Below, piece after piece: positions 2,430 to 48,504 of a DNA stretch of 64,000 bases. A program made the translations under genes and the position numbers. Location of the stretch: NCBI RefSeq assembly GCF_902713615.1, contig NC_052175.1, positions 8,573,941-8,637,940 on the forward strand. Direction: 5' to 3'. Under the pieces are notes generated by a model. It had not been told where the DNA came from and did no database searches. It worked only from the letters and a program-made list of their open reading frames with translations. Numbering within the stretch: the stretch's first letter is position 1; every line of letters starts with the position of its first letter. Source of the stretch: Scyliorhinus canicula (lineage: Eukaryota).

Positions 2430-5400
2430 TGGCGTCGTCTCAGCTGAAAGGGAGAGAGCCATAGCGCGACCCCAGCTGAAAGGGGGATCTGCTGCTCGGC
2501 AGCCTTAATTACTGGCCGGTGACTCATGCTAGGGTGAAATATCTTAATTTAAAAATTAACAATAGCTGCATGGGAAGAAAAAAGGTCCCTTAGAGACTAA
2601 CATTGAAAAAAGAGACTTCAAAGTTCGTGAAAGGATAAACACCGGTGTGCACCCCCGGTAGTATTTGTAAATGATTTCCGCGGGCGTTGCACTTGTTATA
2701 TATATGATCTAAAGTATTTTGCAGATGGAGCGATGATCAATAAACTCGACTTCCCCTCACAGGTCATCCCGAAGCATCGATAAGGGCATCAGGAGCGAGA
2801 AAGAAGGTGAAATCCTGAAAGAAGACAGATAAGGGAATCAAAATTAGTAAGACAATGAAAAGAAACAATCGTAAAGCAACGGAAAGTGGTTGGAAAACCT
2901 AAATTACCCAAAAGGAATCTGGTGAAGCTGACCCCCCTCTCAAAAAAAAAAACAGGGGAGTAAAAGTAAAAAGAAGATTAAGGTAAAAGCGTAACAGTTG
3001 GGTTCCTTTCGAAAAGAGAATTCACATTTTCTATATGCCGTTAGATAAGGCTGACGGTTAACTGCGATATTTTTGAGCTGAGAGTGTGTGTTTTGTTTAA
3101 CCAATTAATTTTAGCCAAAGCATGAAGTGCTAAGTGGGTTGTATTTTATATCTTCTGATATTGTGAGTCCGAGATTATAACTTCAGTCATTTGTGTTGAG
3201 ATTTCTCTAATTCACTGAAACAGTGGAAATTAAAATCAGTTTAAAAGAAGGAAAATGCTATTACGAATCAAAGTAATTGAACCTGAATAAGCTTTTAGAT
3301 CAAGTGAAGAGATGCAAATGGCATAATTCCAAGTTCTGCGCCCCCTTAGGTTCTGCAGGAAACATTAACCATTTTAGCAGATAGTGGACCTTTTCTGAAT
3401 TGACAAAGAAAAATATACGTCTCGAAGAATAGCTAATGACCGTATAGAATTGGTAATTGAGTTACTTGTGTGGTATTTATGACCCCCTCCCAGGAGATGG
3501 TTTGCTGCTTTGAAATTATGCTTATGGTGAATCTTGGCCAGCGTTCAATGATGGGATTGTAGTCCCAACCGGCTTAAATGGGGGCTGGGTTCCAAATAAT
3601 GATAATCACTTGAATGAAGGAAATTAGTCCCTCGAACACTGGTAAGAAAATATAGGGAAAGAGGCTCTCATGCAAGGGGCCAATAAACATGTAACCCCCA
3701 GGAAGGGTTTACCCCACCTAGCGACACCTTCCCCTATTAAGAACATAAGAACATAAGAACTAGGAGCAGGAGTAGGCCATCTGGCCCCTCGAGCCTGCTC
3801 CGCCATTCAATTAGATCATGGCTGATCTTTTGTGGACTCAGCTCCACTTTCCGGCCCGAACACCATAACCCTTAATCCCTTTATTCTTCAAAAAACTATC
3901 TATCTTTACCTTAAAAACATTTAATGAAGGAGCCTCAACTGCTTCACTGGACAAGGAATTCCATATATTCACAACCCTTTGGGTGATGAAGTTCCTCCTA
4001 AACTCAGTCCTAAATCTACTTCCCCTTATTCTGAGGCTATGTCCCCCAGTTCTGCTGTCACCCGCCAGTGGAAACAACCTGCCCTATTCCCTTCATAATT
4101 TTAAATGTTTCTATAAGATTACCCCCTCATCCTTCTAAATTCCAACGAGTACAGTCCCAGTCTACTCAACCTCTCCTCATAATCCAACCCCTTCAGCTCT
4201 GGGATTAACCTAGTGAATCTCCTCTGCACACCCTCCAGCGCCAGTACGTCCTTTCTCAAGTAAGGAGACCAAAACTGAACATAATACTCCAGGTGTGGCC
4301 GCACTAACACCTCATACAATTGCAACATAACCTCCCTAGTCTTAAAATCCATCCCTCTAGCAATGAAGGACAAAATTCCATTTGCCTTCTTAATCACCTG
4401 TTGCACTTGTAAACCAACCTTCTGTGACTCATGCACTAGCACACCCAAGTCTCTCTGAACAGCGGCATGCTTTAATATTTTATCGTTTAAATAATAATCC
4501 CGTTTTCTGTTATTCCTACCAAAATGGATAACCTCACATTTGTCAACATTGTATTCCATCTGCCAGACCCTAGCCCATTCACTTAACCTATCCAAATCCC
4601 TCTGCAGACTTCCAGTATCCTCTGCACTTTTCGCATTACCATTCATCTTAGTGTCATCTGCAAACTTGGACACATTGCCCTTGGTCCCCAACTCCAAATC
4701 ATCTATGTAAATTGTGAACAATTGTGGGCCCAACACGGATCCCTGAGGGACACCACTAGCTACTGATTGCCAACCAGAGAAACACCCATTTATCCCAACT
4801 CTTTGCTTTCTATTAATTAACCAATCCTCTATCCTCTATTAGGCAGACAGACACTCTGCAAATTAGGAGCGGGAATACTTTGCATTGATAATGGAATGTT
4901 TATAGAACCGTCTCGAAAACGAGCTCACCAGCTGCAAAATTTAACAACTTCTGAGCCTGCGCCCGATCGCTCTGTGACTGTGTTGTATGCTGGGAGTTGA
5001 ACGTTTACCCTTACACTACCACTGTTAAATGAAAAACTGCAGGATGTATTACAAAAGATTAATGACCCTGAGGCACAGCTATTAAAACACCTGACGGAGT
5101 TCAGCCGAGAGAATATCGTGACCCATTGCAGGGTTGGTATGCTCGTGAGGATGAGCACACGTACAATTTACAAACGCAAAGTCACTTCGGACAGCAGACC
5201 TCATTGCATATCACTCCTTTTTCTTTTTCAGTATTGTGGGGTTAGGATTGTTAGGACAGTTGACCCATAGTCAGAGGGACCTTTTTAGGATGGGTTTAAT
5301 TTCAGAACCCCATTTAACATTGGCCGTAAGACATCCCGCTGAGGCAAAGCCTAGAGGAGAACTGATCAAAGAGGACAAAGGAACAAAGAAATCCATGAGA

Positions 5401-5851: not shown

Positions 5852-6513
5852 AGAACAAAGAACAAAGAACGAAGTAAAGTACAGGTAAGAATTAGGCCCT
5901 TCGGCCCTCCAAGCCTATACCGACCATGCTGCACGTCTAAACTAAAATCTTCTACACCTCTGTGCTCCGTATCCCTCTATTCCCATCCTGATCATGTATT
6001 AGTCAAGATGCCCCTTAAACGTCATTATCGTCCCTGCTTCCACTACATCCTCCGGCAGCGAGTTCCAAGCACCCTCTACCCTCTGTGAAAAAGACTTGTC
6101 TCGTATATCTCCCATAAAACTTGCCAGTCGCACCACAAACCTATGAACCCTCCAGACTGGCAAAAAGCCTCTGACTAGCCACTCTATCTATGCCCATCAT
6201 AATTTTGTAGACGTCTATCAGGTCGCCCCTCAACCCGTCGTTCCAGTGAGAACAAACCGAGTTCATTCAACTCTCCTCATAGCTAATGCTCTCCATACCA
6301 GGCAACATCCTTGTTAATTTCTTCTGCACCCTCACTAAAGCCTCCATATCCTTCTGGTAGTGTGGCGACCAAAATTGAACACTATCCTCCAAGTGTGGCA
6401 CAACTAAGGTTCTATACAGCGGCAACATAAGTTACCATTTTTATACTCAATACCCCGGCCAATGTAGGCAAGCATGTCGTGTGCCTTCTTAACTATCTTC
6501 TCCACCTGTGTTG
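5852..6513 (-). mobile_element. CR1 LINE 3' fragment, target of the LTR element insertion (resumes at 16335)
   Basis: (AAAGAAC)n tail at ~5852-5872 and CR1 3' sequence; ...ctccacctgtGTTG | GTTGctcctatcagtgacctg reads as contiguous CR1 sequence across the insertion. Confidence 0.8.
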
Positions 6514-7465
6514 TGTTGCACGTTTTACTATGGGCGTAAAACGCGTTTATTGGAGTGTATTAACACGCCTCCGAGTTCGACGTGTGCTTAACACTGCTAG
6601 GCTCTGTTCTATGTAATTATTTAAGCTCTGGAGTCGCCAGCTGCCGTATAGGCAACGTCACAAGTATTCCAAGGCCAAATTCAAAGTAATAAAGACGATA
6701 CACCGATTAGTCAAGTTCAAACGATCAATATTTATTATACAGTTAATAATAAATACTCATGCACACACACTAAGAGACTAAGCTACAACTAAACATAAGC
6801 AAACAGAATACTTATCTAACAGGAACAGGCAAGGTCAGAGAACGAGGCCTTCGTCCTGGTTTTGTCTGCAGCCTTCAGCAAGCGTTCTGGCACTTGGGAG
6901 TCTAGCGGGCTTGGATCGCGTAGCGAGCGTTGAACTTACGGTTTCGGCGGCTGGTGCTCAACGGCTGGAGTCAGGATACCAGGTGTCAGTCGGGGCCGGA
7001 GCACAGGTTTAACAGACCGGACAACACGAGGTCCCTATCTTTTATAGGGGTTCCGTTGTCCTTCCCTCTTCTCGGGCGGGCTCTACCTATTGGATCAATT
7101 TCTTATCGATACTGGATTAATTCCCCAATGCGAGGGGGTCTCCGTGATGGAGGGGGCGTTTCTTATGTCCTTTTGTTCGGAGGTTTCTGGTGCCTCGATG
7201 TCTGGGTCTTGATTGGAATGTGTCCATTCAGAACCAAATGTATCTATTGTGTGGGTGTTCAAGTCTGATGGCCTCATTAGCATGCAAAGCGTTTTGCCAT
7301 TTGCACCTAGCTAAGGTCTCTTTACCTGAGCCCAAACTGGTTTCTGCTGCTGCAGAATGCAAACTGCTCTTTGCAGACTGCTGTTCTGGCTGAACTGTCT
7401 GTTTCCCAGCAGCCTTCCATTTTAGTTTGGCTCAGTGTCCATTTTGCGTGGCCAGCATGGCTACA
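6514..7465 (-). repeat. 3' LTR (952 bp)
   Basis: Direct repeat of 15383-16334; only one difference seen (C6675 vs T15544); minus strand starts TGTAGCC and ends GTGCAACA. Confidence 0.97.
6731..6736 (-). terminator. Candidate polyadenylation signal AATAAA in 3' LTR
   Basis: TTTATT on plus, ~310 nt downstream of the LTR TATA box in element orientation; a second AATAAA lies nearer the LTR end. Confidence 0.5.
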
Positions 7466-7475
7466 TTCCCTCCTT
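7466..7475 (-). other. Polypurine tract
   Basis: Minus strand AAGGAGGGAA immediately precedes the TG of the 3' LTR. Confidence 0.85.
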
Positions 7476-7795
7476 GTGATCCTCACAATCATACTATTGT
7501 GAAGGATCACCTATGTACTTTGCCTCCTTGTGTTCTGACCTCTTGCCAGTTCCTGTTCTACTCTGTTCTAAACTATGGGAAGAAGAGAAAAAAAAATTTT
7601 AACTAACATTTCTACTTGGCCCTATGTCAAAGGGACATGCATTACTACAATTGGGAACCTCTACCTATCACTATTAACCTTAACCTTAACTTAAACATTT
7701 AATCACTCTAAAATCTTAACCATTCACACCACAACATAACACTTCCCAACTCGGCAGTCGAGTATGGAACAATATAATACATGGCTGAATTTTAT

Positions 7796-8149
7796 TTACA
7801 GAGTGTTGTAATCAGTGAGGGGTTGAGGGGTTTGGTGGAATCCGAAGATGGGGGATTGCACTCTATAGATGGGTGAGGTGCTGGAACGAGAGGCTCTCCT
7901 CTTCCATTTCCTCAACCTGAGGGTCTGCACTAGGATGGTGAGGATCGCAATCACCAACAGTGATTCGATTATGTAGGACATGGAGTACCACGTCATGAAT
8001 TTAGTACGCCAGGTCTGAACCTCGCTGATCAGAGCTGAGCACTGGGGGTTTGCTGTACTAACATTTATGGTGGGGGTTGTGGGGGAAACGTGTCTTGTTT
8101 CCACACATATACATATGACATTAAATAGTAATAAGTGGGCTTCCATCAT
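7796..8149 (-). CDS. 117-aa putative single-pass membrane protein in the env position of the retroelement
   Basis: MMEAHLLLFNVICICVET (signal-like), ~36-aa ectodomain with NVS sequon, hydrophobic YIIESLLVIAILTILVQTL, basic RLRKWKRR, C-terminal YNTL. Frame is open from a CAG acceptor at 8252; no other ATG between the acceptor and 8149. Confidence 0.6.
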   Translation of the reverse strand: MMEAHLLLFNVICICVETRHVSPTTPTINVSTANPQCSALISEVQTWRTKFMTWYSMSYIIESLLVIAILTILVQTLRLRKWKRRASRSSTSPIYRVQSPIFGFHQTPQPLTDYNTL

Positions 8150-9087
8150 TTTGCTGTTCTTCCTCTTTCTCTTCCTTCTTCCTCCGGTATTGACAATCCT
8201 GGCTTCGACCTCTGTCTCGTCCTTTGAAACCTTTGGGATCAAGCACAGTATCTGTCAATACACAGTTTAAGACCTTTACTTGTTAGTGCATCTGTCTTTC
8301 AAAACCCAATTGACCCTTTAAAATGACTGGCTAAGTCACACCCTGTGACTCCCCTCATTTTTTTTTTTTCAAAAAGCGAATTTAAAGACCAGCATACACC
8401 TAACAATCCTTCCTTCTGCGAGCCGTCTCGCAGGCTTTGCTGATTTACCATCCGAATGTTTCCGGATGTAAATAGCATGTGGGATGGCGGCCGAAGGGCT
8501 ACCTAACCTAAAATGAAAACAAATTTGGAAAGAAACATCCGAATGAGTTGCGTATGGGCCGCTACGGGTAAGAGTTGGATGGGATCCCCGGGTAGGGCGT
8601 GCTGTGCCATACCCGAGCTTGGCTGACCAAGGGTTGGTTCTCAGACAGGGCGGGTCCTCAGTGCCGTTTGTCCACTGCCTGAGTAACCTGGAGAAAACGG
8701 GTACGAATGTGTTAACCATGACTTGCAGCCTCTATTTCGCCGAATAGAGGGGCACCTAAAAAACCAAGGGAGCCAAGATGCTCCAACTGAGGACATCACT
8801 GAAGTTCTCAGAGATATCTGCAGACAAACTATTTGGCGTGTGGCCTTACAACTTTGGAAAGGATCTCCAATCAAACCGAAGTTCTCAAAAGTTTCGGCAG
8901 ACAAGCTAACGTGTATGTGAGGTGGTCACAATCTTTTCAGCTGAAAAGAAGATGTCCATCCTCCAACTGAAACATTTACATTCCTGAAAACAAACAAACA
9001 TAAAACGAAGACAAACATACGTGCAGGTTCCATCAGAAAGGACATCGTTTCCCTCAAACGATTCCTATCTTACATCATCTGGACACC

Positions 9088-12000
9088 TCACTTTGATTCT
9101 GCCTCTGTGAACAGGGTCACAAAGGGGTTGCCGTGGCGGGAGTCAGACACCGTGTCGTCCTGCTCTCCCGGATCCCACACCCTTGTGTGGATCAGGCATG
9201 CTATTTTGGAGTTGTGTGACCGGGGGTCACTCTCGTCATTGCGGACAAGTCTGTAGGAATTGTCCCTGTGCCATTGTGTAGCGTCGAGTGTGTTGTCGGG
9301 GTAGTCGGGGTCGGGTGGTGGGTCTGGGTTTTTGAGGTAGGTGACTTCCATGGGATCACTGGAGTCGGGGTCGTAGGTGGTGCAGTGTGGGCTGTATGGC
9401 TGTGTGGTGTCGCTGTCTTCAGAGTCAGTGTCTGTCCTACTGTCTCTGCTGTGGCAGCTTGTGGGCGTGTCGGGGCGTGGTCTGTAGTGGTCTGTGGGCG
9501 GAGTCGTGGGCGAGTTCGTGGATGAACTGGTCTGTGAGGAGGATGGTGGAAAAGTGTCTCTGGCGGGCGGGGTGAAGTGTTCTGCTGCATCCAGCAGGAC
9601 ATGGTGAGCATGGTTGGCCTGTGTTCCATATGCCTTTAACTGGTTGATATGGAACCACGCGGTCTTCCCATTAGGATACTTTATCCTGTAAACGGAGGGG
9701 CTAATTTTGTCCGAAATTGAGTAGGGACCGGAATATTTTGGAGCCAAAAAACTGCTGGGGTTATAAACAGATAACATTACCTGTTGCCCAACCTGGAATT
9801 CTGTGGTGTGTACGGTCTTATTGAAACAGGCAGTCCGTTGCTGTCGGCGTTTCCCTAGCTGGACTGCGGCTGCGAGCTGTGCAGACCTCACAGTCTCAAC
9901 TAGATCTCTAACTGCCTTTTCATGTGTGAGGGCCGTCACTTCGGGGCTTGTCATGTCCAGTCCTAAAAGGAATTCTGTACCTTTCATAGGGCGTCCGGTC
10001 ATGAGTGTGTGTGGTGTGTATCCTGTCGATGTGGAGACAGTGTTCCTTATGAACATAAGTGCAAAGGGGAGCACTGAATCCCATGTGGAATTGTTCTGTT
10101 GTACCATTTTCCTAAGGGTAGTTTTTAGGGTCCGATTCATGCGCTCCACAATCCCGCTGGACTGTGGATGATACGCAATGTGGAAGTTCTGTTTGATTCC
10201 GAATATTGTCAGGACGTTCCTCATGACCCGTCCTGTAAAGTGAGATCCCTGGTCCGAATCGATACTTCGGGGTAAACCCCATCTCGTGAAGATGTGGTGG
10301 GTCAGGATCTTTGCAGCTGTCTTTGCTGTATTTGTTCGCGAGGGAAATGCCTCTACCCACTTGGTAAAGGTGTCTATCACCACCAGAACGTATTTATAGC
10401 CATTCCTACAAGGGGGCAATGGACCTATAAAGTCGATCTGGAGGTTTGTCCAAGGGCCGTTAACTGGGCGAGTATGCCGAAGTTGTGCTTTCTTAGAATA
10501 CCTGTCCGGGTTATTCTGAGCACAAATCAGGCAATTCTCTATGTAGTGCGTTACATCATTCCTGAGATTAGGCCACCAACAGAGTTGCCTGAGGTGCCTC
10601 GTTGTTGCATCAATTCCCTGATGCCCGTGTCCGTCATGGAACAAGGCAATCATCTGATTCCTGTCCTGCTGTGGGACCACATAAAGTCGGTCCTTAATGA
10701 TCACACCCTCATGTGTGGTCAGTGCGTGTTTAAAGTGCTCGTAAGCAGGCACAAAGTTTCCCTTGAAAACCTCCCTGAGGTCTCCGTCCTGTTTTTGTGC
10801 TGCCACGAGATCTTTAATATCAGTCTGTGAGACTTGGACTGCGCTCACAGGGGCGCTAGCTGGTGCGCTAGCTGGGGGGGTCCATAAGTGTCCTCTCCTG
10901 GAACCTGCCTTAGCCAACGCGTCGGCTTTTACATTCCCAGGGGGTGATGACCTATGGTGACTTCTTACTTTTATTATGCCGAAGGTCCTGTCCTTCGCTT
11001 TCTCTAGGATATGCTGGAGTAAGGGGGCTGATGGAAGGGGTTTTCCGTCTGCGGAGACAAAACCTCGTGTCCTCCACAGGGGCAGAAAATCGGTTAAACT
11101 GTTACAGACATATAAGCTGTCTGAATATATGTCTGCTGGGCTGGGGAAAGAATCGGGGTGGTCCACTATGTACGCTATGGCTGCTAGCTCCGCTGCCTGC
11201 GCGCCTAAGTGACCTGGTAACTTAAGAGCTATCTCTTCGAGAGCGCGCCCCTGCGCGTCCTCTACATAGATGCCGCATCCTGTGATACGCTCACCATTTA
11301 AAACTGTGGAGGAACCGTCTACATAAATCCTCAAGGGTCCACACGTGTCTGTGGGCTGGGGGCTTTGTTTCGGGTTCCCTATCTTCCTGGGGGGTGTTTT
11401 GGCTAAAAAGGGTCCTGTGTTGTGCAGGGGAGCTACAATTTCACAGTCATGGGGCTGTCCGGGGTATTGGAGGTTGTCGGCTAAGTATGTGTGTGTGCGT
11501 GTCCGTTTCACTGTAATGTCCCGTCCTTGTAAAAGTAGGGTCCACCTAGCTGCCCTAATCTGGCTAACTGAACCGTCCTTCAGTCGACCGTCTAGTAGTA
11601 GCTGTGTGGGTGTGTGTTCGGTTAGAATGGTGATGGGGTTGAGTCCGGTGATGTATGAGAAATACTGCACTGCCCAGAAGACAGCAAGGAGGTGCCTCTC
11701 ACAGGCTGAAAATCCTTGTTCTACTGGGTCTAACAGTCGGGAGGCATAAGCCACTGGTCTTAGCTGCTCGTGCCGTTCTTGAAGCAACACGGCCGAGAGG
11801 GTCAGATCGGTGCTCGCTACCTCTATTGCGTACGGTGAAAGTTGGTCGGGGACTAGCAGCGCGGGTGCTGCACTGAGGGCTCGTTTCAACTCTTCCACAG
11901 CGCCTGTATGCTGCGGAAGCCATTCCCAGGGGGCTCCTTTCTTAAGGAGGTCTGAAAGTGGGGCGGCTTTTGTCGCGAATCCGTCGATGTGGTTCCGACA

Positions 12001-13314
12001 ATAGCCAACCAGTCCTAAAAACGACCGGAGGGCTGATACATTTTGGGGAAGGGGCAATTTGACGATCGAATCAATTCTTTTGAATTCGATCTCGCGTTTG
12101 CCGTGCGTGATGACTGATCCCAAATACATCACTTTACTTTCCAATATTTGGGCCTTTTTCGGGTTAACTTTACAGCCAATTTCAGTTAAGAGTTCTAGGA
12201 GTTCGGCCAGAAGCGAAATGTGCTCTGCCTTTGTGTCTGTCTGCAGTAGTAGGTCGTCTACATACTGTACCAGACATTCGGGTCGGGAAAATTTTTCTAA
12301 TCCACTTGCCAGCTGTCGGTGGAAAATGGAGGGGGAATTGTGGAATCCTTGTGGGAGGCATGTCCACGTGTACTGCTGTGTTTTAAAAGTGAATGCGAAT
12401 TTGTATTGGCACGCTTTTGCCAATGGTATTGACCAGAATCCATTACTGATGTCCAATACCGTGAAGTACTTGGCGTTGAGACCCTGCTTGAGCATGGTCT
12501 CGGGACTAGTAGCTACCGTTGGGGCTACTGCGGGGGTTACTTTGTTGAGTTCCCGATAATCGATGGTCAGACGCCATGATCCATCGGGCTTCCTCACTGG
12601 CCAAATAGGGGCATTGTTGGTGGAGGCTACCGTTCTCAGTACACCTTGGTCCAACAAGCTGCCTATAACTTTTTCTATTTCCACCTCTGCCTCGAGGGGA
12701 AATCTATACTGCTTTTGCGGTCGGGGGTCCTGTCCGGTAACATGAACTTGTCCAGTCATTCTGCCACAGTCATGACGGTGACTTGCAAATGCTGTCCTGT
12801 GTTTGTTCAGTAGGGCCTTAATTTGTCGGTCGGTGTGGAGCGTAGTCAGGTCGAATGAGTACTCTCCCACTGCGCTAATCCGATTAGCGTAGTCTCCTAC
12901 TGTGAGGGTGGCTGGGGCTCTGTCTGATCTCGCCATTCGCCAGACACACTGGTTCACTGGGTCGAACGACAAGCTGTGAGCGTTCATAAAATCTATCCCC
13001 AGGATGTGCTCTGCCGTCCGGGGAAGATTTACTAAAACTACGGGGTGCCTTGTGCTAATGTTCCCTAGCTGGATCGCTACGGGTGCTGTGATATGTCCCT
13101 GCTGCGAGTGTCCGGTGAACCCGCTAAGTGTGATGGTGGAGGTGGTCGGCCACGTGTCTGCGTGTGCCGTGGTTGTGGAGTTAATGGTGGTGCGGGATCC
13201 TCCTGTGTCCCACAATAACTCTATGGGCTTCCCTTTGACTTTTGCCGTGACTACGGGCCTCCCTGATGAGTCCCATAGTGTGTCACAGACCCAAGTGGGG
13301 GAGCCCGAACACCG
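9088..13314 (-). CDS. pol: Pol polyprotein (protease, RT, degenerate RNase H tether, RNase H, integrase, low-complexity C-terminal extension)
   Basis: LLWDTGG protease; LPQGFHNSP and YVDD (12253-12264) RT; IEVAST...ERHL...TEH degenerate Ty3-type RNase H; IYVDGS...AELAAI...YSDS...GNVKAD second RNase H; HHCC plus D-D-E integrase (QIDFIGP, DSDQGSHF, GIVERMN). Frame is open up to the gag stop. Confidence 0.96.
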   Translation of the reverse strand, partial: RCSGSPTWVCDTLWDSSGRPVVTAKVKGKPIELLWDTGGSRTTINSTTTAHADTWPTTSTITLSGFTGHSQQGHITAPVAIQLGNISTRHPVVLVNLPRTAEHILGIDFMNAHSLSFDPVNQCVWRMARSDRAPATLTVGDYANRISAVGEYSFDLTTLHTDRQIKALLNKHRTAFASHRHDCGRMTGQVHVTGQDPRPQKQYRFPLEAEVEIEKVIGSLLDQGVLRTVASTNNAPIWPVRKPDGSWRLTIDYRELNKVTPAVAPTVATSPETMLKQGLNAKYFTVLDISNGFWSIPLAKACQYKFAFTFKTQQYTWTCLPQGFHNSPSIFHRQLASGLEKFSRPECLVQYVDDLLLQTDTKAEHISLLAELLELLTEIGCKVNPKKAQILESKVMYLGSVITHGKREIEFKRIDSIVKLPLPQNVSALRSFLGLVGYCRNHIDGFATKAAPLSDLLKKGAPWEWLPQHTGAVEELKRALSAAPALLVPDQLSPYAIEVASTDLTLSAVLLQERHEQLRPVAYASRLLDPVEQGFSACERHLLAVFWAVQYFSYITGLNPITILTEHTPTQLLLDGRLKDGSVSQIRAARWTLLLQGRDITVKRTRTHTYLADNLQYPGQPHDCEIVAPLHNTGPFLAKTPPRKIGNPKQSPQPTDTCGPLRIYVDGSSTVLNGERITGCGIYVEDAQGRALEEIALKLPGHLGAQAAELAAIAYIVDHPDSFPSPADIYSDSLYVCNSLTDFLPLWRTRGFVSADGKPLPSAPLLQHILEKAKDRTFGIIKVRSHHRSSPPGNVKADALAKAGSRRGHLWTPPASAPASAPVSAVQVSQTDIKDLVAAQKQDGDLREVFKGNFVPAYEHFKHALTTHEGVIIKDRLYVVPQQDRNQMIALFHDGHGHQGIDATTRHLRQLCWWPNLRNDVTHYIENCLICAQNNPDRYSKKAQLRHTRPVNGPWTNLQIDFIGPLPPCRNGYKYVLVVIDTFTKWVEAFPSRTNTAKTAAKILTHHIFTRWGLPRSIDSDQGSHFTGRVMRNVLTIFGIKQNFHIAYHPQSSGIVERMNRTLKTTLRKMVQQNNSTWDSVLPFALMFIRNTVSTSTGYTPHTLMTGRPMKGTEFLLGLDMTSPEVTALTHEKAVRDLVETVRSAQLAAAVQLGKRRQQRTACFNKTVHTTEFQVGQQVMLSVYNPSSFLAPKYSGPYSISDKISPSVYRIKYPNGKTAWFHINQLKAYGTQANHAHHVLLDAAEHFTPPARDTFPPSSSQTSSSTNSPTTPPTDHYRPRPDTPTSCHSRDSRTDTDSEDSDTTQPYSPHCTTYDPDSSDPMEVTYLKNPDPPPDPDYPDNTLDATQWHRDNSYRLVRNDESDPRSHNSKIACLIHTRVWDPGEQDDTVSDSRHGNPFVTLFTEAESK

Positions 13315-15063
13315 TCAGTTCGTCTCGTCCACATTGGTGGGTCCTGACTGTACTGCTACATTGTGGATGGGTTTTGCTTTGTTGCGGTTCAGAGTGCCTG
13401 TCTGCTGGCCTCTCTGAGATCGCTGGGGTGCATTACACTCTTTTGCCCAATGCCCTAACTGTCCACAGTTATAGCATTCCTGTCCTTTCAGTTGAGGGCT
13501 GCTCTTGCCTTCATTTACCCATGCGGGCTTCTGGTGCTCTCTGACTGCTTGGATATCTGCAGCAGCCTGAGCCTCTTCTGGGGATCTAACCTTTCCTTTT
13601 GCCTGAAGCGATTGCTCCCAAGCGCGGGACAATCTTTTGAGGACCCATTTTTCGTTATGGGCCTCTTCTGAGGGGTCGTAATTATTGCAAGCGCTCTGTC
13701 CTGCTTCTGTTGCGTGTGAGATAATTGTGCGCGTCCACTTAACCATGTTTTCGCGGGTTAAATGCGCTCTATCTAGCTGTCCGAAAACTGCGCTGAAGTG
13801 AATCCACAGCCTTCCTGCGAATGCTGTGGGGTGTTCGGATCTCTTCTGCCTGCACTTATTCAAGCCTTCTACGGGGTCACCTCTATTGTACCCGATGGCA
13901 TCTAAAATGGCAGTGTGCATCTCCTCTAGGCTGCCTCCTGCCACGTTTTGTGGGTCGGGGAGGGCTGCCACTACACTCTGGTCTAAGCTCAGCACGGTGA
14001 GCTTAACCTGCTCTCTCTCATCCAGGCCGTACATGGTAGCCTGCTGTTTTACTTTCGCAAAGAACTGGTGGGGGTCTGCGGTGGGGAGGAACGGAGTGAT
14101 CTTTTCACAAGCGTCCCTTAGCTGGGTTACGGTTAAAGGGGTGGTGTAAGTTATGTCTGGGGCGCCTTCTGATTCGGCTTTCCTCTGTGTGGTTACGGGA
14201 TTCATGGGTGCGGTTATGATCTGAGCTGTGGGGGGTTGGGGTGCCTGTCGTTTCTGCTGAGCTGCGGGCGCACATGTTCCCTGAACATAACGCTGCGCTG
14301 TCTCGCTTAATTCCTGCCAATCTGGGGCGTTTTCCCCATCTAACTGAGCTCCAAAGGTGCTTTGGAAGCCATTCTGCACCGAAAGCAGAGATTGCAGTTC
14401 CGCAATCTGTTTCCTGCATTTCGCGTGGTCAACTGTGCTTTGTCTTTGTTCGGTTGTTGCAGCATGGAGTGCTCTCAAAGCTGCTTTGAGATCGGAACAT
14501 TGCCTCTGCAATGCCTCCACCTGCTTTTCCGATTCCTGTCTTATCAGAACGGCACGTTGCACGTCCTGATAGGCTTTCTCATACTGGGTCTGGGAACTGT
14601 TCAGATGAGCTAGACAAGACTGGTGAGCCCTCTTGGCATCATCCACCTCTCTACCCTTCTCTGCCAACTTCCCTTTAAGATCCAGGTTTTCTTTCTCGAT
14701 GTCCCTGACATCGACCTTACTCATTCGGTTCCTTTCCTCTAAATCTGCCCGGAGCGTCCTGATGACCTCCTCTGCGCCTCGCAACTGTGCCAAGCAGGAC
14801 ACAATCGCCATCGGCTTGCGTGCTTTACTTAAACTCTTTTTGTGTATCTGAGAGAGGTTCTCCCACCAAGTATGACCTATACTTCCGGGACCTGTCTCCT
14901 CATTTGCACAAAACTCTTTCCAAAGGGGCCATCCCTTTCCTTGTAAGTATTTGCGGAGTTCCAGCTCCCACGTGGGACACTGGCCTACTCTGCTACTGCT
15001 GCTGGTCGCTGCGACCACAAACTTTGCTGGATCCATCAGGCGTTCCATTGCCTGCATGGCCAT
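13315..15063 (-). CDS. gag: Gag (582 aa): coiled coil, capsid-like region, one CCHC zinc knuckle
   Basis: Uninterrupted ORF after the PBS; CYNCGQLGHWAKEC knuckle; QKRSEHPTAFAGRL MHR-like motif; same frame as pol. Confidence 0.93.
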   Translation of the reverse strand: MAMQAMERLMDPAKFVVAATSSSSRVGQCPTWELELRKYLQGKGWPLWKEFCANEETGPGSIGHTWWENLSQIHKKSLSKARKPMAIVSCLAQLRGAEEVIRTLRADLEERNRMSKVDVRDIEKENLDLKGKLAEKGREVDDAKRAHQSCLAHLNSSQTQYEKAYQDVQRAVLIRQESEKQVEALQRQCSDLKAALRALHAATTEQRQSTVDHAKCRKQIAELQSLLSVQNGFQSTFGAQLDGENAPDWQELSETAQRYVQGTCAPAAQQKRQAPQPPTAQIITAPMNPVTTQRKAESEGAPDITYTTPLTVTQLRDACEKITPFLPTADPHQFFAKVKQQATMYGLDEREQVKLTVLSLDQSVVAALPDPQNVAGGSLEEMHTAILDAIGYNRGDPVEGLNKCRQKRSEHPTAFAGRLWIHFSAVFGQLDRAHLTRENMVKWTRTIISHATEAGQSACNNYDPSEEAHNEKWVLKRLSRAWEQSLQAKGKVRSPEEAQAAADIQAVREHQKPAWVNEGKSSPQLKGQECYNCGQLGHWAKECNAPQRSQRGQQTGTLNRNKAKPIHNVAVQSGPTNVDETN

Positions 15064-15347
15064 TTCCTCTGACTCTCTTTGTATAATTTGGAACAGGGGG
15101 TTGCTGGGGTGGTGTTTTGAGAAAAGGGTACGGCTTACGCTATTTTCCGATCACAAAACTACCGAAAGTTTGTCGCAACAAAAAGCTTTCAGTTTTACCT
15201 TACAGCCCTGTTAGTACGCATGCACTAAAACACACTTCCGAATTTCGCTTATTATTTTGAACACCTTGAATACTTGTGATCTCTTTCTTTCTCTGCAATT
15301 TGGAGTTCTAATTCAAATTTCAGGGTCCTGGACACTGTGGTGTTTCC

Positions 15348-15353
15348 ACTTAC
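15348..15353 (-). promoter_or_regulatory. Candidate major splice donor just 3' of the PBS
   Basis: Minus strand CTGTT|GTAAGT between PBS and gag ATG, the usual retroviral position. Confidence 0.5.
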
Positions 15354-15359
15354 AACAGG

Positions 15360-15377
15360 GTCCCGGCGGAGTCGCCA
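15360..15377 (-). other. Primer-binding site for tRNA-Arg(UCU)
   Basis: TGGCGACTCCGCCGGGAC is the 18-nt complement of GUCCCGGCGGAGUCGCCA, the 3' end of vertebrate tRNA-Arg-TCT as I recall it; 5 nt from the LTR end. Confidence 0.85.
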
Positions 15378-15382
15378 CTAAA

Positions 15383-16334
15383 TGTTGCACGTTTTACTAT
15401 GGGCGTAAAACGCGTTTATTGGAGTGTATTAACACGCCTCCGAGTTCGACGTGTGCTTAACACTGCTAGGCTCTGTTCTATGTAATTATTTAAGCTCTGG
15501 AGTCGCCAGCTGCCGTATAGGCAACGTCACAAGTATTCCAAGGTCAAATTCAAAGTAATAAAGACGATACACCGATTAGTCAAGTTCAAACGATCAATAT
15601 TTATTATACAGTTAATAATAAATACTCATGCACACACACTAAGAGACTAAGCTACAACTAAACATAAGCAAACAGAATACTTATCTAACAGGAACAGGCA
15701 AGGTCAGAGAACGAGGCCTTCGTCCTGGTTTTGTCTGCAGCCTTCAGCAAGCGTTCTGGCACTTGGGAGTCTAGCGGGCTTGGATCGCGTAGCGAGCGTT
15801 GAACTTACGGTTTCGGCGGCTGGTGCTCAACGGCTGGAGTCAGGATACCAGGTGTCAGTCGGGGCCGGAGCACAGGTTTAACAGACCGGACAACACGAGG
15901 TCCCTATCTTTTATAGGGGTTCCGTTGTCCTTCCCTCTTCTCGGGCGGGCTCTACCTATTGGATCAATTTCTTATCGATACTGGATTAATTCCCCAATGC
16001 GAGGGGGTCTCCGTGATGGAGGGGGCGTTTCTTATGTCCTTTTGTTCGGAGGTTTCTGGTGCCTCGATGTCTGGGTCTTGATTGGAATGTGTCCATTCAG
16101 AACCAAATGTATCTATTGTGTGGGTGTTCAAGTCTGATGGCCTCATTAGCATGCAAAGCGTTTTGCCATTTGCACCTAGCTAAGGTCTCTTTACCTGAGC
16201 CCAAACTGGTTTCTGCTGCTGCAGAATGCAAACTGCTCTTTGCAGACTGCTGTTCTGGCTGAACTGTCTGTTTCCCAGCAGCCTTCCATTTTAGTTTGGC
16301 TCAGTGTCCATTTTGCGTGGCCAGCATGGCTACA
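15383..16334 (-). repeat. 5' LTR (952 bp)
   Basis: Near-identical to 6514-7465, followed by the PBS. Confidence 0.97.
15909..15915 (-). promoter_or_regulatory. LTR TATA box with upstream CCAAT
   Basis: Minus strand TATAAAA, with CCAAT at ~15958-15962 about 45 nt upstream. Confidence 0.7.
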
Positions 16335-16479
16335 GTTGCTCCTATCAGTGACCTGCGGTCATCATCAAGACGATAAGAGATTGCAAATATCTGACGTGCG
16401 ATACATCGGGGTGTCCTAGCGCATGAATCACAGTGTGCAGGCACAGCAAGTAATTGGGGAATCTAACAGAACGTTTACC

Positions 16480-33153: not shown

Positions 33154-36100
33154 GAGCAGAGCTACTGATCAGCTGTTCTGGGGAAATTTGCATACGTGCA
33201 GTGCGGTCAGCCTTTTTTGAAGGTGAACCTGCGAAGGAGACCCAAGGAGTTTGAGTGAAGGCAAGCATCCAGCAGAGGGCAGCAGAGCAGAGCTACTGAT
33301 CAGCTGTTCTGGGGACATTTGCATACGTGCAGTGCGGTCAGCCTAATTTGAAGGTGGTTTGTGGAGGGGCTGTTGTCAAGTGACAGTTAAACCCGAAACA
33401 CTTCGTCAGTGTTTCCCACCCTACCTCCTCCTCTAACCAAAAAAAAAAAACCACGGTTGTTGGGAAGCGGGAGCAGGGGCCTGTCGTGAAGCTGAGTGAG
33501 TGCCTTTAAATTTGCTTACCTTTCAGCGGCAGCAGGGTTTGAGGGAGTATCAGGTAAGCTCTTCATTTCTTTTTCATTTTCTTGTTTTTTTTAAAATCTA
33601 GAGGTGATGTCAGGGAAGGCAGTACAATGCTCCTCCTGCAGAATGTTTGAGGTGAGGGACGACGTCAGTGTCCCTGCTGATTTCATCTGTGGGAAGTGCA
33701 CCCAACTCCAGCTCCTCAAAAACCGTGTTAGGGACCTGGAGCTTGAGCTGGATGAACTTCGGATCATTCGGGAGGCAGAGGGGGTCATAGATACGAGCTT
33801 CAGGGAAGTAGTTACACCAAAGACTGGAGATAGATGGGTAACTGTAAAAAGGACTGGGAAGAAGCAGTCAGTGCAGGGTCGTTCCCCTGAATAACAAGTA
33901 TACCGTTTTGGATACTTGTGGGGGGACGACTTACCAGGGGTAAGCCATGGGGTACGGGCCTCTGGCACGGAGTCTGTCCCTGTTGCTCAGAAGGGAAGGG
34001 GGAAAGGAGTAGAACATTAGTAATTGGGGACTCAATAGTCAGGGGCACAGAGAGGAGATTTTGTGGGAGCGAGAGAGACTCACGTTTGGTATGTTGCCTC
34101 CCAGGTGCAAGGGTAAGTGATGTCTCGGATCGTGTTTTCCGGGTCCTTAAGGGGGAGGGGGAGCAGCCCCAAGTCGTAGTCCACACTGGCACTAACGACA
34201 TAGGTAGGAAAGGGGACAAGGATGTCAGGCAGGATGGAAGCTCAGAGTGGGAACTAACAGAGTTGTTATCTCTCGGTTGTTGCCCGTGCCACGTGACAGT
34301 GAGATGAGGAATAGGGAGAGAGCAATTAAACACGTGGCTACAGGGATGGTGCAGGCGGGAGGGATTCAGATTTCTGGATAACTGGGGCTCTTTCTGGGGA
34401 AGGTGGGACCTCTACAGACAGGATGGTCTACATCTGAACCGGAGGGGCACCAATATCCTGGGGGGGAGATTTGTTAGTGCTCTTGGGGGGGGGGGGGGGG
34501 GTTAAACTAATTCAGCAGGGGCATGGGAACCTGGATTGTAGTTTTGGGGTACGGGAGATTGAGAGTATAGAGGTCAGGAGCACAGATTTGACTTCGCAGG
34601 AGGGTGCCTGTGTTCAGGTAGGTGGTTTGAAGTGTGTCTACTTCAATGCCAGGAGTATACGAAATAAGGAAGGGGAACTGGCAGCATGGGTTGGTACCTG
34701 GGAATTCGATGTTGTGGCCATTTCAGAGACATGGATAGAGCAGGGACAGGAATGGTTGTTGTAGGTTCCGGGGTTTAGGTGTTTTAGTAAGCTCAGAAAA
34801 GGGGGCAAAAGAGGGGGAGGTGTGGCGCTGCTAGTCAAGGACAGTATTACGGTGACGGAAAGCATGCTAGATGGGGACTCTTCTTCCGAGGTAGCATGGG
34901 CTGAGGTTAGAAACAGGAAAGGAGAGGTCACCCTGTTGGGAGTTTTCTATAGGCCACCTAATAGTTCTAGGAATGTAGAGGAAAGGATGGCGAAGATGAT
35001 TCTGGAAAAGAGCGAAAGTAACAGGGTAGTTGTTACGGGAGACTTTAACTTTCCAAATATTGACTGGAAAATATATAGTTCGAGTACATTAGATGGGTCG
35101 TTCTTTGTACAATGTGTGCAGGAGGGTTTCCTGACACAATATGTTAACAGGCCAACAAGAGGCGAGGCCACATTGGATTTGGTTTTGGGTAATTAACCAG
35201 GCCAGGTGTTAGATCTGGAGGTAGGTGAGCACTTTGGAAACAGTGACCACAATTCGGTGACCTTTACGTTAGTGATGGAAAGGGATAGGTATACCCGGCA
35301 GGGCAAGAGTTATAGCTGGGGGAAGGGCAATTATGATGCCATTAGACATGACTTAGGATGTGTAGGTTGGAGAAGTAGGCTGCAAGGGTTGGGCACACTG
35401 GATATGTGGAGCTTGTTCAAGGAACAGCTATTGCATGTTCTTGATAAGTACGTACCAGTCAGGCAGGGAGGAGGAGGCCAAGCGAGGGAACCGTGGCTTA
35501 CCAAAGAAGTGGAATATCTTGTTAAGAGGAAGAAGGAGGCCTATGTGAAGATGAGGCGTGAAGTTTCAGTTGGGGCGCTTGATAGTTACAAGGAAGCGAG
35601 GAAGGATCTAAAGAGAGAGCTAAGACGAGCAAGGAGGGGACATGAGAAGTCTTTGGCAGGTAGGATCAAGGAAAACCCAAAAGCTTTCTATTGGTATGTC
35701 AGGAATAAAAGAATGACGAGGGTAAGAGTAGGGCCAGTTAAGGACAGTGGTGGGAAGTTGTCTGTGGAGGCTGATGAGATAACCGAGATACGAAATGAAT
35801 ACTTTTCGTCAGTATTCACTCAGGAAAAAGATAATATTGTGGTGGAGAATGCTGAGACCCAGGCTATTAGAATAAATGGCATTGAAGTGCGTAGGGAAAA
35901 AGTGTTGGCAATTCTGGACAAGGTGAAAATAGATAAGTCCCCGGGGCCTGATGGGATTTATCCTAGGATTCTCTGGGAAGCCAGAGAAGAGATTGCTGAG
36001 CCTTTGGCTTTGATTTTTAGGTCATCATTGGCTGCAGGAATAGTGGCAGAGGACTGGAGGATAGCAAATGTGGTCCCTTTGATCAAGAAGGGGAGTAGAG

Positions 36101-37491
36101 ATAACCCCGGTAACTATAGGCCGGTGAGCCTAACGTCTGTGGTGGGTAAAGTCTTGGAGAGGATTATAAAAGATACGATTTATAATCATCTAGATAGGAA
36201 TAATATGATTAGGGATAGTCAGCATGGTTTTGTGAAGGGTAGGTCATGCCTCACAAACCTTATCGAGTTCTTTGAGAAGGTGACTGAACAGGTAGACGAG
36301 GGTCGAGCAGTTGATGTGGTGTATATGGATTTCAGTAAAGCGTTTGATAAGTTTCCCCATGGTCGGCTACTGCAGAAAATACGGAGGCTGGGGATTGAGG
36401 GTGATTTACAGATGTGGATCAGAAATTGGCTAGTTGAAATAAGACAGAGAGTGGTAGTTGATGGGAAATGCTCAGAATGGAGTTCAGGTACGAGTGGCGT
36501 ACCACAAGGATCTGTTCTGGGGCCGTTGCTGTTTGTCATTTTTATAAATGACCTGGAGGAGGGCGCAGAAGGATGGGTGAGTAAATTTGCAGACGACACT
36601 AAAGTCGGTGGAGTTGTAGACAGTGCGGAAGGATGTTTTCAGGTTCCAGAGGGACATAGATAAGCTGTAGAGCTGGGCTGAGAGGTGGCAAATGGAGTTT
36701 AATGTGGAGAAGTGTGAGGTGATTCACTTTGGAAAGAATAACAGGAATGCGGAATATTTGGCTAATGGTAAAATTCTTGGTAGTGTGGATGAGCAGAGGG
36801 ATCTCGGTGTCCATGTACATAGATCCCTGAAAGTTGCCACCCAGGTTGATAGGGTTGTGAAGACGGCATATGGTGTGTTGGCCTTTATTGGTAGAGGGAT
36901 TGAGTTCCGGAGCCATGAGGTCATGTTGCGGTTGTACAAAACTCTAGTACGGCCGCATTTGGAGTATTGCGCACAGTTCTGGTCGCCTCATTATAGGAAG
37001 GACGTGGACGCTTTGGAACGGGTGCAGAGGAGATTTACCAGGATGTTGCCTGGTATGGAGGGACAATCATATGAGGAAAGGCTGATGCACTTGAGGTTGT
37101 TTTCGTTAGAGAGAAGAAGGTTAAGAGGTGAGTTAATAGAGGCATACAAAATGATCAGAGGGTTAGATAGGGTGGACAGCGAGAGCCTTCTCCCGCGGAT
37201 GGAGGTGGCAAGCACGAGGGGACATAGCCTTAAATTGAGGGGTAATAGATATAGGTCAGGTGTCAGAGGTGGGTTTTCTACGCAAAGAGTGGTGAGGCCG
37301 TGGAATGCCCTACCTGCAACAGTAGTGAACTCGCCTACATTGAGGGCATTTGAAAGTTTATTGGATAAGCGTATGGATGATAAGGGCATAGTGTAGGTTA
37401 GATGGCCTTTAGTTTTTTTCCATGTCGGTGCAACATCGAGGGCCGAAGGGCCTGTTCTGCGCTGTGTCGTTCTATGTTCTATGTTCTATGT
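33154..37491 (+). mobile_element. Full-length but inactivated CR1 LINE (5' UTR, ORF1 zinc finger + SGNH esterase, ORF2 APE + RT)
   Basis: ORF1 CSSC..CGKC, GDSIVRG, GTND; ORF2 [30 protein letters not shown]; premature stops at ~34762 and ~35194 and a frameshift near 36640; (TTCTATG)n tail. Confidence 0.95.
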
Positions 37492-47559: not shown

Positions 47560-48504
47560 TAGTTTAAACCCTCCCCAACAGCTCTAGAAAACACCCCTAG
47601 GACATCGGTTCCAGTCCTGCCCAAGTGCAGACCGTCCGGTTTGTACTGGTCCCACCTCCCCCAGAACCGGTCCCAATGCCCCAGGAATTTGAATCCCTCC
47701 CTCTTGCACCATCTCTCGAGCCACGCATTCATCCTATCTATCCTGACATTCCTACTCTGACTCGCTCGTGGCACTGGTAGCAATCCTGAGATTACTACCT
47801 TTGAGGTCCTACTTTTTAGTTTAACTCCTAACTCCCTGTATTCCGCTTGTAGGACCTCATCCCGTTTTTTACCTATATCGTTGGTGCCTATGTGCACCAC
47901 GACAGCTGGCTGTTCACCCCCCCCCCCCCAGAATGTCCTGCAGCCGCTCCGAGACATCCTTGACCCTTGCACCAGGGAGGCAACATACCATTCTGGAGTC
48001 TCGATTGCGTCCACAGAACCGCCTGTCTATTCCTCTTACGATCGAGTCCCCTATCACTATAGCCCTGCCATTTTTCTTCCTGCCCTGCTGTGCAGCAGAG
48101 CCAGCCACGGTGCCATGAACCTGGCTGCTGCTGCCTTCCCCTGGTGAGCCATCTCCCTCAACAGTATCCAAAGCGGTATATCTGTTTTGTAGGGAGATGA
48201 CCGCAGGGGACACCTGCACTGCCTTCCTACTCTTGCTCTTTCTTTTGGTCACCCATTTTCTATCTCCCTCAGTAACCTTCACCTGCGGTGTGACCAACTC
48301 GCTAAACGTGCTATCCACGACCTCCTCAGCATCGCGGATGCTCCAAAGTGAGTCCATCCGCAGCTCCAGAGCCGTCAAGCGGTCTAACAAGAGCTGCAAC
48401 TGAACACACTTCTTGCACGCGAAGGAGCCAGGGACAGTGGACGTGTCCCTGAGCTCCCACATCGCACACGAGGAGCATGAAACGGGTCTGGGATCTCCTG
48501 CCAT
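47559..48504 (-). CDS. CR1 ORF1 (zinc finger, coiled coil, SGNH esterase), split by a frameshift in the C13 run at 47917-47929
   Basis: CSSC...CKKC, IGDSIVRG, HIGTND, DGLHL motifs across two frames. Confidence 0.88.

Follow-up and report, generated by a model that had tools for sequence, protein, structure and literature searches.

A very young env-less endogenous retrovirus in the shark Scyliorhinus canicula with a conserved small gene for a predicted membrane protein in the env slot

The snakehead retrovirus (SnRV) carries an env gene and several accessory open reading frames (ORFs), has a primer-binding site (PBS) for tRNA-Arg and expresses gag-pol by read-through. SnRV-like endogenous retroviruses (ERVs) of cartilaginous fish have already been published as CmiERV lineage I of the elephant shark (PMC4422223), the SnRV-like clade is named Huo in PMC6001957, and clade III is reported to be dominant in Chondrichthyes (PMC11089739). 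PMC4299795 describes unclassified ERVs akin to Ovex1 and to SnRV, in some of which a GPY/F-like motif occurs along with a zinc finger in Gag. Here we analyse a stretch of 64,000 nucleotides of the catshark Scyliorhinus canicula (contig NC_052175.1, positions 8,573,941 to 8,637,940; hereafter the window), which holds on its minus strand, at 6514-16334, a complete provirus of 9.8 kb with long terminal repeats (LTRs), a tRNA PBS, a polypurine tract and a target-site duplication (TSD). A sequence-only reading of this stretch, borne out in its guess that the host is a shark, had flagged two RNase H domains in Pol as an architecture shared by retroviruses, lokiretroviruses (Loki) and Odin elements, and had read it as the sign of a deep-branching retrovirus-related lineage. 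That layout is ordinary, and attention is due instead to an early-branching, env-less, massively and recently amplified shark ERV with an apparently selected non-Env membrane gene and a Loki-like integrase. We consider it probable that the element is a very young env-less ERV of SnRV/Ovex1-related grade, likely spread by germ-line retrotransposition, with a small gene in the env slot whose product, a predicted single-pass membrane protein, may anchor Gag particles to a membrane.

The element is a very young ERV with over a thousand near-identical copies, and its family is transcribed in the sense direction into poly(A) RNA. All 96 scored matches to its reverse transcriptase (RT)-tether region in the host genome had 100% protein identity, and exact counts gave 1,678 LTR-PBS junctions and 1,039 small-ORF 24-mers, with 0 for the reversed controls. 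The first 22 perfect matches to RT supplied a sample of 20 young copies, two with shorter pol frames being left out. Nine of 18 full LTR pairs in this sample showed no substitution and 16 showed at most three; a perfect 4-bp TSD flanked 14 of 17 copies, 13 of 20 had a full-length gag, and 19 of 20 a complete small ORF. Reads from two bulk oligo-dT RNA runs extended across the whole element with a strong sense bias, and a single-cell RNA run gave poly(T) loose ends ~20 nt beyond the AATAAA of the 3' LTR (Table 1); these reads describe the family and cannot be assigned to the window copy. Read depth was 3- to 10-fold higher 3' of ~8900, a rise that could come from oligo-dT bias, deleted derivatives or subgenomic RNA and that we did not use as evidence. 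No RNA-labelled sequencing run was found among the holders listed in the run search. Near-identical copies that are transcribed would likely be an ongoing mutagen in the shark genome.

No env-sized frame lies between pol and the 3' LTR, in keeping with the earlier suggestion that a normal env is lacking; the longest frame, of 152 codons, includes an ORF of 117 aa. Env loss is common among ERVs, and a missing env is compatible with ERV status. When we sampled gamma-type env loci (TLV_coat) elsewhere in the genome, 18 of 20 had an integrase match and none was of the element's lineage; the integrases at these loci were at most 45% identical to that of the window, and their best matches were mostly class I-like. 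An RT match near env at one locus (L125) proved to be an isolated 56-aa piece. Surveys that require env, by the criteria given in PMC10435555, pass over ERVs of this kind by design.

The 117-aa protein begins MMEA, without an N-myristoylation motif. It has a hydrophobic N-terminus, a Ser/Thr/Pro stalk with an NVS sequon, a predicted transmembrane (TM) segment at about aa 57-79 (hydropathy peak 2.06 at aa 57-75), the basic stretch RLRKWKRR directly after it and a Tyr-bearing tail. We examined two further sets of loci. The first comprised 20 loci with differing codon spellings of the RT motif, taken from the first 100 of the exact PQGFHNSP-coding sites, of which the host genome holds 3,528. Of these 20 codon variants 15 belong to the element's lineage (the other five were class I-like), so the env-less lineage has spread through the genome in repeated waves. 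In 10 of the 15, pol was followed by a homologue of the small ORF. The second set comprised 20 loci found through a diverged ORF; pol fragments were present in 17, and no env-sized frame stood between pol and the ORF, the longest being 237 codons.

Across the TM-spanning core, the proportion of nonsynonymous differences (pN) was below that of synonymous differences (pS) in 30 of 30 alignable copies of the 40 loci, with medians of 0.27 and 0.79, and identity was ~79% at codon position 2 and ~40% at position 3. RT gave 0.16 and 0.74 for comparison, and a neighbouring control frame 0.30 and 0.45. The contrast with the control is large and argues that the small ORF is under purifying selection across diverged families. 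In the most diverged of these the product has ~218 aa, predicted to form a signal, a ~100-aa Cys-containing domain, a Ser/Thr stalk, the TM segment, the basic stretch and the tail; the Cys domain is missing from the other families, the window's included. Ahead of the ORF, the window copy and four old ones (L045, L054, L082, L084) have an acceptor- and branch-point-like motif.

Five matches to the small ORF were found among 1.84 billion representative sequences, four of them catshark gene models with the same ERV segment, which point to a catshark-like host, and one a repeat protein. A 5.8-billion word search returned no match, and feature matches in the ESM Atlas were all below 0.9, that is, generic small TM proteins. 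The 218-aa form had no Pfam match over the cut-off and no PDB match. No published description of the family or the small ORF surfaced in a search that left subscription journals, Repbase and Dfam outside; supplements, such as those of PMC10699275, might hold one, and Repbase or Dfam might already have a consensus. In the four catshark gene models (P0118-P0121) the small ORF is exonised; in one of them it extends a HEPACAM2-like protein at its end and would provide the TM and tail there. These models may reflect either artefact or exaptation.

Among possible roles of the small protein, we favour a Gag anchor, then a host-directed accessory or captured gene, and then a route like that of the FAST and sORF2 proteins. 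The anchor is favoured because the TM segment and tail are the conserved part and Gag lacks Gly2. The protein would keep the membrane-anchoring share of the env-slot job through its TM segment and basic, Tyr-bearing tail, its ectodomain having shrunk from ~150 to ~40 residues. That the anchoring role was retained while the ectodomain shrank is the most speculative part of our account, and we put it forward tentatively. If a vertebrate retrovirus lineage has indeed kept a non-Env membrane protein in the env slot over a long divergence while the protein's ectodomain was lost, it would offer a test case for the membrane functions that an ERV requires even without env, and might be a vertebrate counterpart of the insect sORF2. 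The small ORF would be translated from a spliced RNA, as env is. For the rest of the cycle we draw on known retrovirology: Pol would be made by read-through of the TGA, reverse transcription primed by tRNA-Arg, RNA cleaved by the second RNase H with the tether as a structural domain, and the 4-bp duplication made by integrase. Amplification would proceed in cis inside germ-line cells without Env, and PMC10435555 reports that env-less ERVs can amplify by cis retrotransposition with gag and pol alone.

A somewhat less likely role, though a possible one, is that of a host-directed accessory factor, acting in restriction or immune down-regulation or in receptor interference, or of a captured host membrane gene. 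CrocERV31, an ERV outside classes I and II, provides a precedent in nectin3, a membrane-protein ORF in the env slot under purifying selection (PMC4299795), and SnRV has small accessory ORFs (PMC12193657); the long form of the small protein is itself laid out as a type I glycoprotein. In contrast to nectin3, the ORF of our element cannot be traced to a recognisable host gene and is reduced to 117 aa. Neither Pfam (over the cut-off) nor PDB yielded a homologue from host or virus, the four real matches carry the same ERV segment, and the AlphaFold model of the 218-aa form was unusable (pLDDT 41), all of which tells against capture or an accessory function.

It is improbable that the small protein is a fusion or adhesion protein of the FAST/sORF2 kind, by which capsids would pass from cell to cell, for example from soma to oocyte, without Env. 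Like MDG1 sORF2 and the reovirus FAST proteins it is small, with a single TM followed by a juxtamembrane polybasic stretch and a Tyr-bearing tail, has a short ectodomain after a predicted signal and rides on an env-less carrier; its place downstream of pol is shared with some of the lepidopteran sORF2 elements described in 10.1101/2025.03.14.642691, and both the purifying selection on the ORF and the very large recent burst would suit such a function. However, it has a signal peptide, likely cleavable, in place of an N-myristoylation glycine, its older 218-aa form with the ~100-aa Cys domain is unlike the ~30-residue FAST ectodomain, and its carrier is a true retrovirus. It had no sequence or feature match to FAST proteins, and the cis amplification of Env-less ERVs described in PMC10435555 requires no such protein. 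If transfer of this kind did occur, a lineage from the base of the retroviruses would have exchanged Env for an unrelated small membrane protein and would carry its capsids straight into the germ line of the shark, as a vertebrate retrovirus that is infectious without Env and still amplifying.

Pfam found in the 1,408-aa Pol a PR domain, RVT_1 (240-400), RT_RNaseH (493-596, E 5e-18), a distinct RNase_H (662-805, E 7e-16) and integrase with an SH3-like tail, both RNase H domains lying between RVT_1 and integrase, and the murine leukaemia virus (MLV) RT was collinear with Pol residues 197-806. Every motif quoted in the sequence-only reading was recovered in this one minus-strand ORF: for RT, DISNGF at aa 288, QYTWTCLPQGFHNSP at aa 314 and YVDD at aa 351; for the first RNase H, IEVAST at aa 497 (11826-11809) and TEH at aa 565; for the second, YVDGS at aa 664 (11325), AELAAI at aa 708, YSDS at aa 730 and GNVKAD at aa 793 (10938-10921). 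Alignment with six gypsy RNase H rows confirmed that the first domain is degenerate and has lost its first catalytic Asp (D→A500), together with D→E566, and added a third lost acidic residue, E→H541. Its losses resemble those of Loki and of frog and coelacanth relatives. The second domain is complete as claimed and precedes integrase, with D666, E709, D732 and D798 kept, as judged by motif. The two RNase H domains are therefore genuine, but because the RT falls inside Retroviridae they are the expected state of any retrovirus and do not mark a Loki or Odin lineage.

We built a careful RT tree of 41 rows and 263 columns. Its references were SnRV Pol (P0058, motif-matched), an ERV-L-like Pol from chicken (P0063), one of foamy-like type (P0015), several Pols of class I-like type, 14 rows of gypsy/Tat and three Loki contigs identified through their motif. 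The gypsy rows split off at 100/100, which agrees with the earlier view that the element is no ordinary member of the Metaviridae, and Loki (100/100) was sister to the retroviruses. The element fell within a 24-row retrovirus clade at 100/99, and with amphibian and coelacanth rows at 94/85. A tree from RT and integrase together (28 rows; 13 were omitted as partial, redundant or long-branched) placed it in Retroviridae at 99/99 on a short branch. An approximately unbiased (AU) test rejected an RT clade of the element and Loki (p-AU 0.0009, three Loki rows); a constrained tree that united the element and its frog and coelacanth relatives with SnRV was 3.3 log-likelihood units above the free tree and was not rejected (p-AU 0.6). 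Scans of IMG/VR found no useful retroviral reference.

The RT of the element was 48% identical to SnRV, 40% to Loki and 38% to the foamy-like row. Its closest proteins were Pols labelled 'NYNRIN-like' from frog, coelacanth, turtle and ostrich (39-50% over RT-RNase H), with frog and coelacanth at 45-50%; the turtle and ostrich rows may be linked to Ovex1. With SnRV the element shares a tether plus RNase H and RT motifs nearly identical in kind (LDISNGFWSI, TQQYTWT.LPQGFH.SP and IWPV.KPDGSWRLTIDYR), and with some of the Ovex1/SnRV-related ERVs the zinc finger in Gag and a motif of GPY/F type. In contrast to SnRV it lacks env and has a single small ORF, conserved and with a predicted TM segment; RT monophyly of the two is compatible with the constrained tree. 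ERV3 and ERV4, as tabulated in table 1 of PMC4299795, have a 5-bp TSD, no zinc finger and no GPF/Y, whereas the element has a 4-bp TSD, a CCHC knuckle and GPY. It fits neither feature of the Metaviridae, with their single active RNase H and metavirid RT, nor of the Spumaretrovirinae, whose Gag lacks CCHC and whose pol is expressed apart from gag. These comparisons suggest that the element is a member of the unclassified SnRV/Ovex1-related (class III-like) grade within Retroviridae, and in the trees its branches are short and join close to the base of the retroviruses. The proposal of a deep-branching lineage survives as to depth, and fails where it would make the element a stepping stone of Loki type that stands apart from the retroviruses.

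The gag gene is consistent with this position. Its product has a zf-CCHC match (Pfam E 1e-7), and a TGA at 13315-13317 parts it from pol without a change of frame, as it does in all of 20 sister copies. An in-frame TGA between gag and pol is also described for XtERV-S, a frog ERV of class III (PMC8278194). The earlier description of gag and pol as in frame holds for the frame itself but not for an uninterrupted one, and its argument against a foamy virus, from CCHC and frame, is upheld and joined by the 38% RT identity to the foamy-like row. PMC10699275 places 293 catshark elements, 'ERV-Spuma.0-Sca', with foamy-like ERVs; the element might overlap that set.

Several observations weigh against our account. 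The free RT tree does not join the element to SnRV, and the tree of RT and integrase puts it in a basal polytomy of the Retroviridae. Identity in the tether was 41% to Loki and 25% to SnRV, and in integrase 47% and 32%. The integrase tree, from which four long rows were omitted, joined the element with Loki and amphibian and turtle rows at 80/93 (unstarred; CGIN1 absent). Odin, class II and typical gammaretroviruses were missing from the trees, which contained between one and three Loki rows. The choice of young copies skews the intactness counts upward. Related copies and tblastn-picked segments favour pN below pS, which the control frame also showed in 13 of 13. No splice joint to the small ORF was seen among the reads listed from three raw RNA runs and two contig sets, and the env survey covered gamma-type TM only (PF00429), in 20 of 78 loci.

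Loki membership was considered first, since the nearest proteins are labelled NYNRIN-like. Lokiretroviruses and Odin share the dual RNase H with the element, and Loki a similar tether degeneration and a similar integrase; the N-terminal half of Gag is likely a coiled coil (Pfam and PDB matches weak), as in Bik-1 (10.1101/2024.03.25.586437), and env is absent, as PMC9040795 describes for Odin. The Loki RT rows shown in PMC7947760, however, have a PFG-type motif, mostly [C/L/M]PFGY, where the element has LPQGF, and the Loki pattern occurred 0 times in the host genome. The large F-like env that PMC7947760 describes for Loki has no counterpart in the element, which is without an env-sized ORF, and in the RNase H-2 tree the element stood apart from Loki. 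For Loki, RT motifs and AU test together largely refute the reading as a Loki or Odin-type element, sister to and outside the canonical retroviruses, that had lost env or never had it; the rejected clade with Loki speaks indirectly against Odin as well, and we regard the reading as very improbable. With RT inside Retroviridae and the Loki clade rejected, the absence of env is therefore best read as loss or replacement. In the Loki screen as presented in PMC7947760, six chondrichthyan genomes carry no asterisk. Three metagenome contigs (L057-L059) contained fish-type lokiretroviruses, two of them (L057, L058) with gag, pol and an env-sized ORF.

Of the separate trees that the earlier reading had proposed, with Loki included and Odin absent, those of RT and RNase H-2 set the element away from Loki and that of integrase set it with Loki. 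The idea that the element informs on the passage from retrotransposon to retrovirus accordingly stays partly alive through the integrase and is opposed by the RT. A retroviral RT together with a Loki-like tether and integrase in a short-branched Pol suggests that the Loki/CGIN1-type integrase may be ancestral for retroviruses, on weak branch support (80/93), rather than the Loki-specific replacement proposed in PMC7947760. In the nearest frog Pol model (P0001), a signal-like stretch at the C-terminus is followed by what by eye is an immunoglobulin (Ig) V-like domain, with no Pfam match at E 0.001; in a sister lineage, pol may be followed by an Ig gene captured from a host. The 218-aa form of the small protein shows no likeness to the tail of this frog protein.

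Table 1. Positions of the provirus features in the window.
Feature	Position	Strand	Remarks
5' LTR	15383..16334	-	952 bp, TG...CA; 1 mismatch to the 3' LTR
3' LTR	6514..7465	-	952 bp; TATA 7041-7046, donor-like GTAAGT 6934-6939, AATAAA 6731-6736
Poly(A) site in 3' LTR	~6711-6714	-	RNA read ends
PBS, 18 nt, 5 nt inside the LTR	15360..15377	-	Complement of host tRNA-Arg(TCT) 3' end + CCA
gag, 582 aa	13315..15063	-	Single CCHC knuckle; Gly2 lacking; terminal TGA in the pol frame
pol ORF, 1,408 aa	9088..13314	-	PR-RT-tether-RNase H-integrase, GPY/SH3-like tail
Tether (degenerate Ty3/gypsy-type RNase H)	11527..11838	-	Pfam RT_RNaseH 493-596 and alignment
Second, complete RNase H	10900..11331	-	Pfam RNase_H 662-805; D666, E709, D732, D798
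Integrase (HHCC, DDE core, SH3-like/GPY)	9628..10677	-	Pfam
Conserved block between pol and small ORF	8417..8688	-	blastn; ~70-80% DNA identity in older families
Branch-point and splice-acceptor-like motif before small ORF	8231..8260	-	Sequence; also in diverged families
Small ORF in env slot, 117 aa	7796..8149	-	Predicted signal/stalk/TM/polybasic protein
Polypurine tract	7466..7477	-	Sequence
TSD GTTG, 4 bp	6510..6513 and 16335-16338		Sequence

The pattern of the PBS for tRNA-Arg(TCT) had 11 exact matches in the genome, and ARAGORN called tRNA-Arg(tct) in one of three loci examined. An exact match to tRNA-Arg(TCT) was present in two of 19 young copies (L061-L080), plus the window copy; 12 of the 19 had a bulged form with a 1-nt insertion, and five had a third sequence, which presumably fits another Arg(TCT) isodecoder.

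Conservation of the block that separates pol from the small ORF extends to older families in which synonymous sites approach saturation. A 120-codon frame at 8372-8731 was ruled out as a gene (pN/pS ~0.67). With pN 0.30 and pS 0.45, the block is at most weakly coding and is possibly a candidate cis-acting RNA element for export or packaging.

Elsewhere the window contains ORFs of non-LTR retrotransposons with endonuclease and RT at 44797-47583 (-), 35197-37393 (+) and 3738-4835; identity is 97-98% between the copies at about 3.7-4.4 kb and about 44.4-45.1 kb. A long, degenerate GA-rich tandem region occupies 54800-62200, and several SINE-like repeats are present in other parts of the window.

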